DNA from: Anaerolineae bacterium
GTDB taxonomy: Bacteria > Chloroflexota > Anaerolineae > B4-G1
Assembly (NCBI GenBank): GCA_034430655.1
Contig: DAOUEC010000177.1
Span: forward strand, 1 to 61,214
Length of the DNA stretch: 61,214 bases
Direction: 5' to 3'
Below the pieces are notes generated by a model. That model saw nothing but the letters and a program-made list of their open reading frames with translations, was not told the origin of the DNA and did no database searches. The position numbers and the translations under genes were made by a program. Numbering within the stretch: the stretch's first letter is position 1; the number at the start of each line of letters is the position of its first letter. Of this stretch, positions 19,119 through 61,214 are shown one piece after another.

Positions 19119-19568
19119 CTACAGGGCTGAGAAAGCGCCGGGCCAGGCTTCGCACGCTGACTGCATCGTTTTCTGCAAGGGCGGCAGTGCGCGCAGCCCC
19201 TCTGTGAACTCCCGTACCGTCTCGGCAAAGAGTTCCCCCTCCGATGCGGAGATCCACTTCACCAGGAAGCGCTCCGGCTCGATGCCAGTGAACTCAAGAA
19301 GGGCTTTGAGGACCGGCATGCGGCGGGCGGTGCGGTGATTGCCAGTGCTGTAGTGACAATCGCCGATGTGACAGCCCAGCACCATCACGCCGTCCGCCCC
19401 TTCCCGGAATGTGCGGATCATCAGTTCAGGCGAAATGCGCCCGGAGCAAGGGACGCGGATAATCTTGAGATTGGGCGGGTACTTCAGCCGGCTCATTCCC
19501 GCCAGGTCCGCCCCAGCGTAACTGCACCAGTTGCACAGGAAACCGATGATCTTGGGTTCGTAGGCCAT
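19119..19568 (-). CDS. mvhD: MvhD-like hydrogenase iron-sulfur subunit (FlxD-like)
   Basis: 'KIIGFLCNWCSYAGADLAG...IRVPCSGR...GADGVMVLGCHIGDCHY'. Confidence 0.9.
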   Translation of the reverse strand: MAYEPKIIGFLCNWCSYAGADLAGMSRLKYPPNLKIIRVPCSGRISPELMIRTFREGADGVMVLGCHIGDCHYSTGNHRTARRMPVLKALLEFTGIEPERFLVKWISASEGELFAETVREFTEGLRALPPLQKTMQSACEAWPGAFSAL

Positions 19569-19587
19569 TGCTCCTCACTTTCCGAAT

Positions 19588-21555
19588 CTACGCCGCTACG
19601 ACTTCTTCCCACATCGCACTCATCGCCCCCACCATCTCGGCGATCAATTGCCGGTCAGTGAAGTGGCACAAGGTGATAGACTTGGAGGGACAGGCGGCGG
19701 CGCAGGTACCGCACCCCTTGCACAGCGCCTCGATGACGTGAGCGACGCCCCTATCCTCCAGGAACTCGATGGCCGAATACGGGCAGGTCTGGATGCACTG
19801 CTGGCACCCCACGCAGGTTGCTGCGTTCACTATCGCCGTCGCCGCCTCGACTTCCAGTTCGCCCCGCTCGATGATCGAGAGCACCCGTGCTGCCGCTGCC
19901 GCCCCCTGGGCCACCGTGTCGGGGATGTCCCGTGGGCCCTGGGCACAGCCGGCGATGAAGACGCCGTCGGTCATCGTCGCCACCGGGTCCAGTTTGGGAT
20001 GCTTTTCTTTGAACCAACCGTCTTTGTTACAACTTATGTTGAAGAGGCGGGCCACCTCCCGCGCGTCGTGCCTGGGCTCGATCGCCGCACTCAGCACCAC
20101 CAGGTCCGCCAGCACCCGTACCCGCCTCCCCAACGCCCTATCCTCCGCGTAGATGGCCAGCCTGCCCTCTTCAGGAACGATCTCGGCGGGCCGCCCATTG
20201 ATGAAGACCACGCCTTCCCGCTGCACCCGCTTGTAGAACTCCTCGTAATCCTTTCCACCGGTGCGCATATCAATGTAGAACTCGTAGATGCGGGCGTGCG
20301 TCTTCTCGTGGGCCAGGTGGGACAGTTTGAGGGAGTACATGCAGCAGATTTTAGAACAGTAGGGATGATAGTTCTCGTCCCGGCTCCCCACACAATGGAT
20401 GACGGCAATACTCTCCGGCTCTGTTTCCCCATCCTGCAGCACGATCCGTCCCCCGGTCGGCCCGGCCGCGTTCGACATGCGCTCGAACTCCAGGCTGGTG
20501 AAGATGTTGGGGTAGCGCCCATACCCATACTGGGAGATGCGGCGACAATCGAAGAGATCGTAGCCCGTGGCGACAATGACGTTCCCCACCCGGATCTCAA
20601 GTATCTGATCCTCCTGGCTAAAGTCTATCGCCCCGGTGGGACAAACCTCCTCACACAGTTTGCAGCGGCCTTTGGTGAAGAAGAGGCAGTGTTCGCGGTC
20701 AATCACGGGGTACTGGGGGACCGCCTGGGGAAAGGGCCGGTAGATCGCCTTGCGCTTCCCCAGCCCGACCTCGAAAACCTCGTCCACGACCCTCCTGGGG
20801 CACTTTTCCTCACACGTTCCACAACCGGTGCACTTCTCCTCATCCACCGACCGGGCCCGCTTGCGGATGCGCACGGTGAAGTTGCCCACATAGCCAGAGA
20901 CTTCCTCCACCTCGCTGTAGGTGAGCAGCGTGACGTTGGGATGGCTGCCGACCTCAAACATGCGCGGGGTGAGGATGCAGGCAGAGCAGTCGAGTGTGGG
21001 GAAGGTCTTGTCCAACTGGGCCATGTGGCCCCCAATGGAAGGCTCCCGTTCCACGAGATAGACCGGGAAGCCGGAGTTGGCGATCTCCAGCGTGGCCTGG
21101 ATGCCGGCTATGCCCCCGCCCACGATCAGTGTGGCCGGATTGATGGGCACCTTCCTGATGCTCAGCGGCTGGTGGTGCCGCACCCGCAGGACGGCCGCCT
21201 CGACCAGCGCCTTCGCCTTCGCTGTGGCCTCGTCCCGATCGTCGTGGACCCAGGAGCAGTGCTCCCGGATGTTGGCCATCTCGAAGAGGTAGGGGTTCAG
21301 ACCGGCGCGGGCACAGGCGTTGCGGAAGGTGGCCTCGTGCATCTGAGGGGAGCAGGAAGCCACCACCACCCGGTCGAGCCCCAGTTCCCGGATGTCGTCC
21401 TCGATCAATGCCTGGCCCGGAGTGGAACACATGAACTGGTAATCCCGCGCCACGGTGACGTCAGGCAGGGTGCCTGCCCACCGGGCCACCCCCTCGCAGT
21501 CCACCGTACCGGCAATGTTACTACCACAGTGACAGATATAGACGCCGATCTTCAT
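19588..21555 (-). CDS. hdrA: Heterodisulfide reductase subunit A-like flavoprotein (Cys form)
   Basis: 655 aa. 'KIGVYICHCGSNI', 'VGGGIAGIQA', 'DCSACIL', 'HCVGSRD', 'CSKICCMYS' and C-terminal 2x[4Fe-4S] motifs. Confidence 0.92.
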   Translation of the reverse strand: MKIGVYICHCGSNIAGTVDCEGVARWAGTLPDVTVARDYQFMCSTPGQALIEDDIRELGLDRVVVASCSPQMHEATFRNACARAGLNPYLFEMANIREHCSWVHDDRDEATAKAKALVEAAVLRVRHHQPLSIRKVPINPATLIVGGGIAGIQATLEIANSGFPVYLVEREPSIGGHMAQLDKTFPTLDCSACILTPRMFEVGSHPNVTLLTYSEVEEVSGYVGNFTVRIRKRARSVDEEKCTGCGTCEEKCPRRVVDEVFEVGLGKRKAIYRPFPQAVPQYPVIDREHCLFFTKGRCKLCEEVCPTGAIDFSQEDQILEIRVGNVIVATGYDLFDCRRISQYGYGRYPNIFTSLEFERMSNAAGPTGGRIVLQDGETEPESIAVIHCVGSRDENYHPYCSKICCMYSLKLSHLAHEKTHARIYEFYIDMRTGGKDYEEFYKRVQREGVVFINGRPAEIVPEEGRLAIYAEDRALGRRVRVLADLVVLSAAIEPRHDAREVARLFNISCNKDGWFKEKHPKLDPVATMTDGVFIAGCAQGPRDIPDTVAQGAAAAARVLSIIERGELEVEAATAIVNAATCVGCQQCIQTCPYSAIEFLEDRGVAHVIEALCKGCGTCAAACPSKSITLCHFTDRQLIAEMVGAMSAMWEEVVAA

Positions 21556-21564
21556 CGCTGCCCC

Positions 21565-59875: not shown

Positions 59876-59929
59876 CTCTCAGCTAACTCCTGCTCTGCCA
59901 TCACGCAGAGAATATGGCTGCAGTTCACC

Positions 59930-60003
59930 CTCCCCCTCAGTGATGAACTCCTCCAACCGGCGCTGCACTTTCCTCAATGCAACTCGACCCGCGTTATGCC
60001 GGC
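59930..60003 (-). pseudogene. Internally deleted remnant of a paralog of the 57986..58525 ATPase gene
   Basis: 59930..59968 is about 80% identical (by eye) to the 3' end of the ATPase gene at 57990..58029. The 15-mer aactcgacccgcgtt at 59981..59995 equals 58452..58466. The roughly 420 nt between these two blocks in the intact gene are missing here. Confidence 0.6.
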
Positions 60004-60047
60004 CTCGCGTGGCAGGCCCACCGGGCGACACCCCAGTAGGGACAGGG

Positions 60048-61214
60048 TTACCCAGCCCCCACAGCGGCCTGCATGGACTTCCACACCAGTTCGGTGAGGT
60101 CCATCGCCCGCATGCGGATCTTGTTCTGGCGTGCGCCCTCCTGCAGTGTGCGCTTGCACTGCTGGCAGGCGGAGAGGACGTACTTCGCGCCAGTGGCCTG
60201 CGCCTGCGCCATGCGCTTCGCCGCGACGCCGGCGGTAACGGTGCGGTCGGCTACTTCGACGTCGCCGCCACCCCCGCAGCAAAGGGCGTTCTCGCGGCTG
60301 GCGGACATCTCGCGGAACTCCAGCCCCGGTATGCGGGCTATCACCTCACGTGGCGCGTCATAGACCCCGCTCTTGCGCCCCAGGTCACAGGGGTCGTGAT
60401 AGGTCATGACCGCCTCCACCGGCCCGAGGGCCAATTTGTCGCCGGCGAGCAGTTCGGCCAGAAACTCGCTGGCGTGCTGCAACTGGATGCCGGAGATGTC
60501 CACGACCTCGGGGTAGAGATGCGTCCAGGCGTAGTAGCAGGAGGGGCAAGTGAAGACGATCTTTTTGGCCCCCACGGCCCGTGCCTTCTGAACGTTGTGC
60601 TGGGCCAACTTAGCCATGCGATCACCCATTCCCGCGATGTGGAGGGGATAGCCACAACACCACTCATCCCTGCCCAGCGTGGTGAACTCCACATCGGCCC
60701 GCTCCATAATCTGCACGAACGCCTGGGGGATGCTGTAGACGCGGGGGTAGAAGGAACTGACGCAGCCGATGAAGTAAAGAACCTCGGCCTTCCTGCGGCG
60801 GGGCTTGACGCCACGCGGAGTATGGGCGAGGTTCTGGCTCCAAATCTGGCGGCTCTTGTTATCGTCGCCGGAGATGTTGTGGCTGCTGGCAATTGTCTCC
60901 CCGAACATCTTCATTCCCTCAGGGACATTGACGTCCACCCGCGTGGCGTACTCCTTGAGAGCGATCATCGTATCCGTGATCGGGATGCCTCGCGGGCAGC
61001 GCACCTGACACGACTTACAGGTGGTACAGAGCCAGAAGGTGCGGCTGGACAGAACGTCCTCTTTCATTCCCAGTCGCACCATTTGCCACAGTTGGCGGGG
61101 GGTATAGTCCATCGCGAAGGCGGTGGGACACGAGGCACTACAGGTGCCGCATTGGATGCAGGAGAGCAGTTGCTCCCACTCCGGCGTCACCTGTCTGGCC
61201 AGTGTACGATCGAG
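60048..61214 (-). CDS. HdrD/GlpC-like Fe-S protein with CCG domains (5' end possibly beyond the window)
   Basis: 'CIQCGTCSASCP', 'CTTCKSCQVRCP', and the CCG-type motifs 'CPSCY' and 'LCCGGGG'. The frame stays open to the window edge. GTG 61190 is a possible start. Confidence 0.8.
   Translation of the reverse strand, partial: LDRTLARQVTPEWEQLLSCIQCGTCSASCPTAFAMDYTPRQLWQMVRLGMKEDVLSSRTFWLCTTCKSCQVRCPRGIPITDTMIALKEYATRVDVNVPEGMKMFGETIASSHNISGDDNKSRQIWSQNLAHTPRGVKPRRRKAEVLYFIGCVSSFYPRVYSIPQAFVQIMERADVEFTTLGRDEWCCGYPLHIAGMGDRMAKLAQHNVQKARAVGAKKIVFTCPSCYYAWTHLYPEVVDISGIQLQHASEFLAELLAGDKLALGPVEAVMTYHDPCDLGRKSGVYDAPREVIARIPGLEFREMSASRENALCCGGGGDVEVADRTVTAGVAAKRMAQAQATGAKYVLSACQQCKRTLQEGARQNKIRMRAMDLTELVWKSMQAAVGAG

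Follow-up and report, generated by a model that had tools for sequence, protein, structure and literature searches.

A 42-gene HdrA-centred redox cluster of an Anaerolineae bacterium, with a split HdrA joined to Bfu-type NuoEF and predicted to contain selenocysteine

The contig DAOUEC010000177.1 of an Anaerolineae bacterium (GenBank assembly GCA_034430655.1; Chloroflexota), whose entire 61,214 bp form the window analyzed here, carries a long series of redox genes centred on HdrA and its partner MvhD, proteins best known from the heterodisulfide reductase complexes of methanogens. From position 19119 to the contig end, 42 consecutive genes, recognized as open reading frames (ORFs) with coding support, run on the minus strand over 42 kb, and no plus-strand ORF with coding-like composition was found in this interval outside the confirmed minus-strand genes. 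The co-directional island of about 40 kb described in an earlier note on this DNA is thus borne out and, with the exception of a single label, its gene list agrees almost wholly with the identities obtained here by ORF listing and translation, five Pfam scans and one NCBIfam scan. As G+C content is uniform across the island, we treat the region as a gene cluster that is not obviously foreign. Among GTDB species representatives, the closest relatives are uncultured Anaerolineales metagenome-assembled genomes (MAGs), with 94% and 91% identity in the 986-aa protein described below, followed by Thermoflexales and other Anaerolineae with 75-80%. The Anaerolineales are among the most abundant bacteria of anoxic sediments, and their energy conservation is mostly inferred. 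Loci of other genomes that were compared with the window carry codes from L001 to L065, which are used below where they are needed to tell loci apart.

The most distinctive feature of the cluster is a predicted Bfu-type NuoEF fused into the low-potential exit of an HdrA, next to Mvh or, elsewhere, FdhAB. The genes that constitute this head module, all on the minus strand, are the following:

60048-61214, minus: HdrD-like gene, a soluble fused HdrC+HdrB, with its start beyond the contig end (Pfam, PDB, motifs, synteny)
55759-56604, minus: N-terminal fragment of HdrA (HdrA-N), with an in-frame TGA predicted to encode selenocysteine (Sec) at 56017-56019 (translation)
55295-55762, minus: NuoE, corresponding to BfuC (Pfam)
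54908-55279, minus: NuoE-like ORF of 123 aa (Pfam)
53104-54900, minus: NuoF-like flavoprotein of the BfuB/HydB type (Pfam, PDB alignment)
51277-53088, minus: 603-aa fusion of a BfuA/NuoG-like domain with the C-terminal part of HdrA (PDB alignment, NCBIfam)

HdrA-N comprises the N-domain, the GxGxxG motif that binds flavin adenine dinucleotide (FAD) and, from the inserted ferredoxin domain, the first cluster motif, after which it ends. The nuoE, nuoE-like and nuoF genes are encoded in the gap between it and the remainder of HdrA, which is found in the 603-aa fusion. Residues 2-187 of the latter align with the 247-aa BfuA-type chain 9mqx_A (3.5e-47) and form a domain with a [2Fe-2S] and two [4Fe-4S] clusters; residues 156-590 align with residues 245-652 of HdrA (6e-124), a stretch from the inserted ferredoxin domain's second half to the C-terminal ferredoxin domain. 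When reassembled, the split HdrA possesses every HdrA motif and is 57% identical to the uninterrupted 655-aa HdrA encoded at the other end of the cluster. The NuoF-like protein can be aligned from end to end with bifurcating HydB (7t2r_B, 3.6e-233; 7q4v_B; 8a6t_B), the C-terminal 2x[4Fe-4S] domain included, and displays the complete BfuB architecture (N-terminal [2Fe-2S], flavin mononucleotide, NADH_4Fe-4S and the two C-terminal [4Fe-4S]). Hence, 53104-54900, 55295-55762 and residues 2-187 of the fusion match BfuB, BfuC and BfuA, respectively, of the Bfu family (HydABC, NiFe-HydABCSL and Wor-Bfu; PMC9304861), with the distinction that BfuA is here covalently joined to half an HdrA; the passages on HdrA in that survey mention no Hdr-Bfu class. 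We also considered PDB 9MQX as a structure of BamGHI, the NuoEFG-like input of benzoyl-CoA reductase, and rejected this since the entry comes from the paper on the tungsten oxidoreductase and Bfu. In metagenomes, more than 120 protein clusters (>=78% identity), mostly from Chloroflexi, share the length and architecture of the 603-aa fusion.

The in-frame TGA of HdrA-N, read as TLDCST*ILGPKM, takes the place of the second Cys of DCSxC, which is the Cys/Sec197 position of methanogen HdrA; in Methanococcus maripaludis HdrA this position is Sec (PMC13518236). The same TGA splits the gene in L001-L004, L025, L063 and L064, and the counterpart in the Zixibacteria locus L006 is an uninterrupted ORF. 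A second in-frame TGA (28234-28236) lies in the gene for the alpha subunit of the formate dehydrogenase (FDH) described below. On the minus strand a hairpin follows each TGA, at 55955-56022 (a stable one) in HdrA-N and at 28170-28239 in the FDH gene, and the two share the apical loop motif GCCGGUC(U)GGC, a candidate for the element that SelB binds in this lineage. Neither hairpin matched an Rfam family of the selenocysteine insertion sequence (SECIS) at threshold, and the window holds no selABD genes. Nevertheless, both genes present the combination expected of bacterial selenoproteins, namely a UGA at a Cys/Sec position of their homologs and a stem-loop.

Gene order in other genomes indicates how this module is put together. 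In L063 and L064 the order is (DRTGG/CBS-ATPase), HATPase, HdrD-like, PHP, a protein of about 400 aa (392 aa in L064), Sec-HdrA-N, NuoE, NuoE2, NuoF, the fusion and MvhD. What follows the fusion gene differs: L064 has MvhD/MvhG/MvhA, which are orthologs of MvhD3, MvhG and MvhA of the window (81-84%), and L063 (11752-15066) has instead MvhD, an FdhB-like protein of 273 aa and a Sec-FdhA that lacks the NuoG-like N-terminus. Judging from these gene contents, this amounts to the swap of H2 and formate modules known from the Hdr complexes of methanogens. In L006 the order is HdrC, HdrB, HdrA-N, NuoE, NuoF, the fusion, a five-gene unit (below) and MvhDGA. The MvhA region of L006 (17585-20728) encodes ORFs of 63 aa and 395 aa and then a second, full MvhA of 489 aa, and may represent a Sec-interrupted or duplicated large subunit. 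In the window, the 11 genes from HdrA-N to MvhD2 overlap or are separated by no more than 15 nt.

The HdrD-like gene at the head of the run is the only one on the contig with the CCG domain, the hallmark of HdrB. Its product, 398 aa long in sister contigs that contain the start, has two CCG domains (Pfam, 3e-32) and Fer4_8/17, with the CxxCxxCxxxCP motif and the complete C..CCG..CxxC motif present twice each and hydrophobic segments absent; the N-terminus aligns with HdrC chains (1e-16 to 1e-20) and the C-terminus, weakly, with HdrB. In other Chloroflexota (L063, L064) its orthologs (78-82%) always adjoin the split Sec-HdrA/NuoEF, and in L006 its place, directly upstream of hdrA-N, is occupied by an hdrC gene (196 aa) and a separate hdrB gene (293 aa, with CCG). 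Because both CCG motifs are intact, the association is constant in Chloroflexota and hdrC+hdrB stand in for it in Zixibacteria, we infer that the HdrD-like protein is the HdrBC equivalent of the head module, which would most likely end in a classical HdrB-type site. The earlier note had found no HdrB or HdrC in the window and had set this gene aside as a mere exception at the edge. Separate genes for the two are indeed missing from the 61-kb contig; the same evidence argues that their fused form is present and is no mere exception. Four near-identical sister contigs from other samples (including the NCBI MAG GCA_964566615.1), reached by look-up of the PHP protein, run 4-8 kb past the HdrD-like gene; these 4-8 kb also lack separate hdrB or hdrC genes, encoding instead LPG-synthase and PMT_2/YfhO glycosyltransferases, which answers the concern that hdrBC might lie just outside the window.

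A gap of 172 nt separates the HdrD-like gene from the next genes, and a further gap of 138 nt precedes HdrA-N. Between them lie:

59290-59875, minus: two overlapping small ORFs of 106 and 95 aa (no Pfam family)
58519-59283, minus: PHP (Pfam)
57986-58558, minus: HATPase_c (Pfam)
56743-57963, minus: 406-aa protein without known family, conserved in L063 and L064

The last three are kept beside the HdrD-like gene and the split HdrA in L063 and L064 with 54-81% identity. For the 406-aa protein the earlier note had proposed a SpoIIE-like identity, the one label that fails: Pfam gives no support for it even at E<=1, and the likeness is confined to a degenerate GEEVCGE-type motif seen by eye. The pair of small ORFs occurs only in the closest relatives and is not at this position in L063 or L064; L064 (4214-4844) has a nucleotidyltransferase/HepT (HepT/MNT) toxin-antitoxin pair between the gene for the ~400-aa protein and HdrA-N, which, along with the small ORFs, points to small mobile inserts in the cluster.

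Between the fusion gene and mvhD3 in both the window and Zixibacteria is inserted, with overlapping or <=15-nt junctions, a unit of five genes:

48320-51280, minus: 986-aa fused HdrA pseudo-dimer (PDB alignment, motif map, length-conserved family)
47880-48311, minus: MvhD1 (FlpD/MvhD, Pfam)
46732-47883, minus: FdhB-like protein of 383 aa (family profile)
45627-46739, minus: FdhB-like protein of 370 aa (family profile)
45187-45615, minus: MvhD2 (FlpD/MvhD, Pfam)

The 986-aa protein distributes one full set of HdrA cofactors over two thioredoxin-reductase-like halves. Its first half, without GxGxxG or CVGSR..CC, contributes the inserted ferredoxin domain and, in LDFCWIC, the counterpart of Cys197; the second half has the N-terminal cluster domain, the GGGLAG FAD motif, CVGSR..CC..K and the C-terminal ferredoxin domain. 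The count of four HdrA units in the earlier note is therefore too high in terms of cofactors. A comparable state is found in the fused or tandem HdrA of anaerobic methanotrophic (ANME) archaea and in the Moorella MetFV-HdrABC-MvhD complex, where one half keeps the N-terminal cluster domain and the other Cys197 (PMC9012536). The 986-aa protein shows the same complementary loss, which implies an intramolecular heterodimer, but the order of its halves is reversed, the Cys197-bearing one coming first, and its partners are two FdhB-like proteins and two MvhD. The four MvhD proteins that the earlier note counted in the window are all full-length FlpD/MvhD matches of 142-157 aa (E 1e-41 to 1e-53).

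The two FdhB-like proteins of the unit, putative flavo-iron-sulfur proteins, are 36% identical to each other. A profile of 34 family members aligns with nearly the whole length of the FdhB subunits of the methanogen Fdh-MvhD-Hdr complexes (9t1s_M, 1.7e-58; 8rvu_E, 4.8e-51; 7bkb_E, 1.2e-40). In methanogens, ElpB, an FdhB homolog, and ElpC, an MvhD homolog, constitute an F420H2-oxidizing arm for HdrA (PMC12350162). As in these Fdh/Elp-MvhD-Hdr arms (7BKB, 8RVU, 9T1S; PMC12350162), the FdhB-like proteins here stand beside MvhD and HdrA; in contrast to them, no FdhA/ElpA partner was found in the five-gene unit, each fused HdrA is accompanied by two different FdhB-like/MvhD pairs, most loci lack HdrBC and the host is a bacterium. 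By analogy with ElpB/ElpC and FdhB/MvhD, the FdhB-like/MvhD pairs probably serve as arms, each passing hydride to or from a soluble cofactor, NAD(P)H or F420. As a hypothesis on the same analogy, these two unlike arms together with the single exit of ferredoxin type would give the unit the three sites needed for bifurcation without HdrBC.

The unit is far from confined to this lineage. A genome scan of one genome per species with two peptide patterns, whose distribution is to be read as a lower bound, recovered 56 loci, all from MAGs and none from an isolate genome. They are labelled Anaerolineales, Thermoflexales, Zixibacteria, KSB1, Ignavibacteria, Verrucomicrobiota, Gemmatimonadota, Sumerlaeota, Eisenbacteria, Acidobacteriota, Aquificota, Deferribacteres, Thermodesulfobacteriota and Desulfobacterales; a protein search adds Latescibacteria and Auribacterota for the 986-aa family. 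At least 12 mostly uncultured phyla hold the unit. The order fused HdrA, MvhD, FdhB-like, FdhB-like, MvhD is kept in nearly all of the 56 loci with enough flank. In most loci the unit stands alone, as in Latescibacteria, where a MerR gene precedes it; in some others, Aquificota and Desulfobacterales among them, genes for HdrC-like, HdrD-like and canonical or 1130-aa HdrA proteins accompany it. Loci of the Aquificota/Thermodesulfobacteriota type (L032, L033, L035, L039, L044, L051) have an HdrA-like gene of about 1130 aa and an HdrC-like gene of 180-215 aa upstream of the fused-HdrA unit, a different gene order that is another undescribed arrangement.

Separated from MvhD2 by 204 nt are the genes of a hydrogenase, followed by those for its maturation:

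42100-45018, minus: MvhD3, MvhG and MvhA, a group-3c-like cytoplasmic [NiFe] hydrogenase (PDB, Pfam), with MvhD3 at 44545-45018, minus (FlpD/MvhD, Pfam)
34917-42015, minus: maturation protease, HypA, HypB, HypF, a 199-aa ORF, HypC, HypD and HypE (Pfam)

MvhG aligns over its full length with 5odc_E (6.4e-65). MvhA, which carries the nickel-binding motifs RICGVC (N-terminal) and DPCLGC (C-terminal) in its translation, is nearly equally close to MvhA of methanogens (5odc_F, 2.4e-114) and to the large subunit of NiFe-Bfu (7t2r_D, 1.2e-117). From these matches MvhD3, MvhG and MvhA are predicted to form a group-3c-like enzyme. The 199-aa ORF between hypF and hypC (37323-37922, minus) overlaps the end of hypF by 61 nt and has no Pfam match, and its status as a gene is uncertain. 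The hypF and hypE genes are also among the sites of the many short tandem arrays of 7-nt units (TTCGCAA, GAATTGC, CGTGAAA, TGCGAAT, AACGTGA and others) that are scattered over the window:

38218-38248, 38707-38740, 39069-39095 and 39621-39659: heptanucleotide arrays in hypF
35817-35845: heptanucleotide array in hypE
56683-56714, 9664-9733, 2508-2531, 6439-6474 and 16924-16954: heptanucleotide arrays at other positions

Several of these arrays lie within coding sequence and give rise to peptide inserts in HypF loops, such as FAIRNSQFAIRNS and RFTFHV. The same loop positions are occupied by other repeat-coded inserts (PETLKPET, NLQSPISNLQSP) in the HypF ortholog of L063; the insertions look like a lineage-wide, hypervariable feature that is tolerated in frame.

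Downstream of the maturation genes is a formate module:

33905-34774, minus: FNT formate/nitrite channel (Pfam)
33019-33705, minus: MobA-like molybdenum-cofactor guanylyltransferase (Pfam)
26557-32874, minus: DRTGG, CBS-HATPase and DRTGG regulators with the FDH genes (Pfam)
29399-31168, minus: NuoE-NuoF fusion, FDH beta (Pfam, PDB alignment)
26557-29331, minus: FDH alpha, with the TGA for a predicted Sec (Pfam, translation, PDB)

The TGA of FDH alpha is at the canonical site, read as HCARL*HSSTVAGL. The protein matches end to end the tungsten Fdh1A of Methylobacterium (7vw6_A, 3e-224) and FdsA of Rhodobacter (6tg9_A, 3e-223), and residues 26-573 of FDH beta align with residues 52-563 of Fdh1B (7e5z_B), which is nearly the whole length. 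The alpha subunit thus combines a NuoG-like N-terminus with a molybdenum/tungsten-bis-pyranopterin guanine dinucleotide (Mo/W-bisPGD) domain containing the predicted Sec, and the beta subunit is of the NuoE/NuoF type, a NuoE-NuoF fusion as in Fdh1B; what sets the window's enzyme apart from Fdh1AB and FdsABG are the active-site Sec and the DRTGG/CBS-ATPase regulators upstream. FDH beta is without the C-terminal Fer4 (ferredoxin) domain typical of the bifurcating BfuB. For these reasons we reject a bifurcating Bfu-type or HdrA-linked enzyme, such as the earlier note had counted among the HdrA/MvhD modules; the FDH is probably, on alignment, a non-bifurcating NAD-linked enzyme of the Fdh1AB/FdsABG type. 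NAD-linked formate dehydrogenase of this type has been noted before in marine Chloroflexi (PMC5736913).

The last part of the cluster has a composition reminiscent of Flx:

24513-26543, minus: two response regulators and a GAF histidine kinase (Pfam)
19119-24325, minus: Flx-like unit of an FdhB-like protein (294 aa), a HydB/AsrA-like protein (345 aa), a HydG/AsrB-like FAD/NAD/[2Fe-2S] protein (281 aa), HdrA (655 aa) and MvhD4 (Pfam/NCBIfam)
19588-21555, minus: canonical HdrA of 655 aa, Cys-containing
19119-19568, minus: MvhD4 (FlpD/MvhD, Pfam)

The 655-aa HdrA aligns with Methanothermococcus HdrA (5odc_A, 1e-222), and the 294-aa protein, 27% identical over its full length to the 370-aa FdhB-like protein, is a short member of that family. 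The same gene set, again without hdrBC, is found in another Anaerolineae genome (L065), where orthologs of the response regulator and the GAF kinase (60-62%) directly precede it. It is with the Flx-like unit, and not with the FDH as grouped in the earlier note, that these regulators travel. In L065 (13270-15237) the HdrA ortholog is split into 192+457 aa at DCSxC and is apparently a Sec protein there, with Cys in the window; the alternation of Sec and Cys at this site is conserved across the loci compared. The FlxABCD-HdrABC system of Desulfovibrio and other anaerobes consists of an NAD(P)H-binding FAD/[2Fe-2S] protein, Fe-S proteins, an MvhD homolog, HdrA and hdrBC. The window clusters a FlxA-like protein, Fe-S proteins, an MvhD homolog and HdrA in the same manner, but gene order differs, the third Fe-S protein is the short FdhB-like member and hdrBC is present neither downstream of 19119 in the window nor in L065.

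The remaining 19 kb (1-19118) are of a housekeeping character, with genes for a methylase, RmlD, an ADP-forming acetyl-CoA synthetase, GroES/EL, a thioredoxin-like/TrxR pair and ATP sulfurylase, and no HdrB/HdrC-like gene was found there by Pfam. The ATP sulfurylase gene (16994-18205, minus; PUA_2 and ATP-sulfurylase, E 5e-100) is on the same strand as MvhD4, some 900 bp downstream; aprAB, qmo and dsr genes are absent from the window. A double thioredoxin-like protein is encoded with a TrxR-like flavoprotein at 9767-11412 (plus), and the ADP-forming acetyl-CoA synthetase (2592-4679, plus) is consistent with a fermentative or acetogenic lifestyle. Rfam and tRNA scans of the window yielded nothing, neither a SECIS nor a molybdenum-cofactor riboswitch family.

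Two characterized complexes offer parallels for the head module. In the methanogen Hdr complex, electrons reach the bifurcating FAD from the MvhD cluster, the high-potential electron passes via HA4 to HdrC/HdrB and the low-potential one leaves through HdrA's inserted ferredoxin domain (PMC12350162; PMC13518236). MvhA, MvhG and MvhD of the window are homologous over their full length to those of MvhAGD-HdrABC (PDB 5ODC), and both the 655-aa and the reassembled split HdrA have the N-domain, the FAD site, the HA4 CC motif and the inserted and C-terminal ferredoxin domains. The Sec predicted for the split HdrA takes the position of Cys197, which Sec also occupies in Methanococcus HdrA. The same domain logic (MvhD to FAD, HA4 to HdrC/B, the inserted ferredoxin domain as low-potential exit) can hence be recognized. 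The differences are that methanogens have a separate HdrB and HdrC and the window one fused, soluble HdrD-like protein, that the Mvh-adjacent HdrA is split, with its low-potential exit fused to a BfuA domain with NuoEF, and that the host is a bacterium without known coenzyme M or coenzyme B. The other parallel is the class II benzoyl-CoA reductase (BCR) BamBCDEFGHI of Geobacter, in which a fused HdrA dimer, BamE, passes the high-potential electron to BamD, a fused HdrBC, and BamGHI is a NuoEFG-like input (bioRxiv 10.64898/2026.04.10.717634). The window shares with it a NuoEFG-like module (of the Bfu/HydABC type), an HdrA-type core, an MvhD adaptor, a fused HdrBC and a fused HdrA dimer, the 986-aa protein resembling BamE; this is a likeness of architecture only. 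On the other hand, the tungsten aldehyde ferredoxin oxidoreductase (AOR)-type subunit BamB and BamC are not among the annotated genes of the contig, where a hydrogenase (FdhAB in L063) is found instead. Moreover, BamI is separate and linked by the long BamF (MvhD plus about 100 residues), whereas here the BfuA-like domain is fused to HdrA and the MvhD proteins are only 142-157 aa long, and the distal cluster of BamD is modified, whereas both CCG motifs of the HdrD-like protein are intact.

Taking these findings together, we propose, with somewhat better than even confidence and as one reading of the locus, a redox cluster of five modules. Module A would be an Mvh-Hdr-Bfu chimera (61214-51277 plus 45018-42100), module B the five-gene unit (51280-45187) inserted between the fusion gene and mvhD3, module C the [NiFe] maturation genes, module D the formate channel, MobA and the NAD-linked Sec-FDH, and module E an NAD(P)H input (HydG/HydB-like with the short FdhB-like protein) joined to HdrA and MvhD4 under the GAF kinase and response regulators. 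In module A, electrons from H2 would enter via MvhD3 to the HdrA flavin; the high-potential electron would leave via the CCG clusters of the HdrD-like protein to a thiol/disulfide-type or protein acceptor, and the low-potential electron via the inserted ferredoxin domain into the BfuA domain and on to a NuoEF core that would exchange with NAD(H) and ferredoxin. Because the low-potential exit of HdrA is covalently continued by the BfuA domain leading to NuoEF, two bifurcation/confurcation centres would be placed in series, as in the class II BCR, and would link H2 (formate in L063), NAD(H), ferredoxin and the acceptor at the CCG site.

Several points weigh against this proposal. Membership of every complex is read from gene order, and the HdrD-like gene is set off by the 172-nt and 138-nt gaps from the HdrA-N side and lies amid regulator genes in L063/L064, so that a sensory or independent role for it is conceivable. 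Feeding the low-potential output of HdrA into a second bifurcating centre looks energetically redundant, and the series arrangement could run as confurcation, with NADH and reduced ferredoxin as input, as in the class II BCR. Module B is tightly coupled to the split HdrA in the window and Zixibacteria, and A and B may be one assembly rather than two; its phyletic distribution, coming from a two-pattern scan, could also be biased.

If A and B were one assembly, the HdrD-like protein, split HdrA, NuoEF, fused-HdrA unit and MvhDGA would make up a single multi-megadalton supercomplex with three flavin branch points. The translational coupling of the 11 genes from HdrA-N to MvhD2, the same composite order in distant Zixibacteria and in L007 and the existence of megadalton Hdr and class II BCR assemblies speak for it; yet the five-gene unit is autonomous in most genomes, the split-HdrA/Mvh core does without it in L063 and L064, and MvhD3 follows MvhD2 only after 204 nt, which together make a supercomplex distinctly unlikely. 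Somewhat less unlikely, though still improbable, is that every HdrA/MvhD module works without an HdrB/HdrC-type subunit and on acceptors other than disulfides, with the HdrD-like gene as an unrelated neighbour beyond its 172-nt gap. This would accord with the absence of separate hdrB/hdrC on the contig and just beyond, with the five-gene unit standing alone without CCG proteins in most phyla and with the Flx-like unit lacking hdrBC in L065 too. It fits poorly with the constant company of the HdrD-like orthologs and the split HdrA/NuoEF in Chloroflexota, the hdrC+hdrB directly upstream of HdrA-N in Zixibacteria, the intact CCG motifs, the precedent of BamD as a fused HdrBC serving an HdrA-type core and the HdrC-like, HdrD-like and canonical HdrA genes that flank the five-gene unit in several phyla. 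The broader claim of the earlier note, that the acceptor is not a classical heterodisulfide, accordingly divides: the head module most likely has an HdrBC equivalent, and for the five-gene unit (here and in most relatives) and the Flx-like unit, where a CCG partner is absent, a non-disulfide acceptor is a live possibility.

A role of the HdrD-like protein as a redox sensor or an independent CCG oxidoreductase resembling GlpC, LldF or TfrB, belonging to the PHP/HATPase/DRTGG regulator set, seems very unlikely to us. Its gene does lie between the HATPase and PHP genes in L063 and L064, its best NCBIfam matches (TfrB, LdhH, GlpC) are all below cut-off and its best PDB match is a 1042-aa "iron-sulfur-binding reductase" (9ojn_A), but its N-terminal half is closest to HdrC, its equivalents in Zixibacteria are hdrC+hdrB beside hdrA-N and no flavin dehydrogenase partner of the GlpA/LldD type is nearby. 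Finally, two genes with in-frame stops and the repeat-coded inserts of HypF and HypE might suggest decaying duplicates or pseudogenes, a concern that the earlier note had also raised for the paralogs. This is effectively refuted: paralogs in the window are only 24-60% identical (MvhD 39-60%, HdrA units 24-57%, FdhB-like 36%), each has closer orthologs in other genomes, both TGAs are at known Sec positions with a hairpin after each and the Sec/Cys alternation is kept across loci. By these comparisons the paralogs appear to be old and functional.

Every part of the cluster appears to belong to a known family, and what is new, so far as sequence tells, is the arrangements. Published work offers precedents for fused HdrA, HdrA without HdrBC, FdhB-only HdrA clusters and the combination of Bfu with HdrA. 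A literature search found no description of a split Sec-HdrA with inserted nuoEF and a BfuA fusion, constantly partnered with fused HdrCB and Mvh/FdhAB, nor of the five-gene unit as an entity that is conserved and widely distributed; a search on HdrA, NuoF, MvhD and HdrD in Anaerolineae did not turn up this cluster, and a preprint on HdrA evolution has nothing on fused HdrA forms. According to the preprint on the class II BCR, no complex with two bifurcation modules had previously been reported (bioRxiv 10.64898/2026.04.10.717634).

Whatever we say of mechanism beyond domain content and synteny is inference. As a tentative idea that we regard as doubtful, the five-gene unit might be a self-sufficient bifurcating analogue of Nfn without HdrBC, and the chimera a second natural example of two centres in series. 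If so, the FdhB-like arms would be the sites of a mid-potential donor (such as NADPH or F420H2) and a high-potential acceptor (such as NAD+), with ferredoxin reduced at the inserted ferredoxin domain of the 986-aa protein, making the unit an HdrA-based Nfn analogue. More generally, these loci suggest that the principle of two bifurcation modules is much more common and operates with hydrogenases, and the cluster shows how Anaerolineales may couple their H2, formate, NAD(H) and ferredoxin pools. With the partner set now defined, the question of what bacterial HdrA modules reduce becomes testable.

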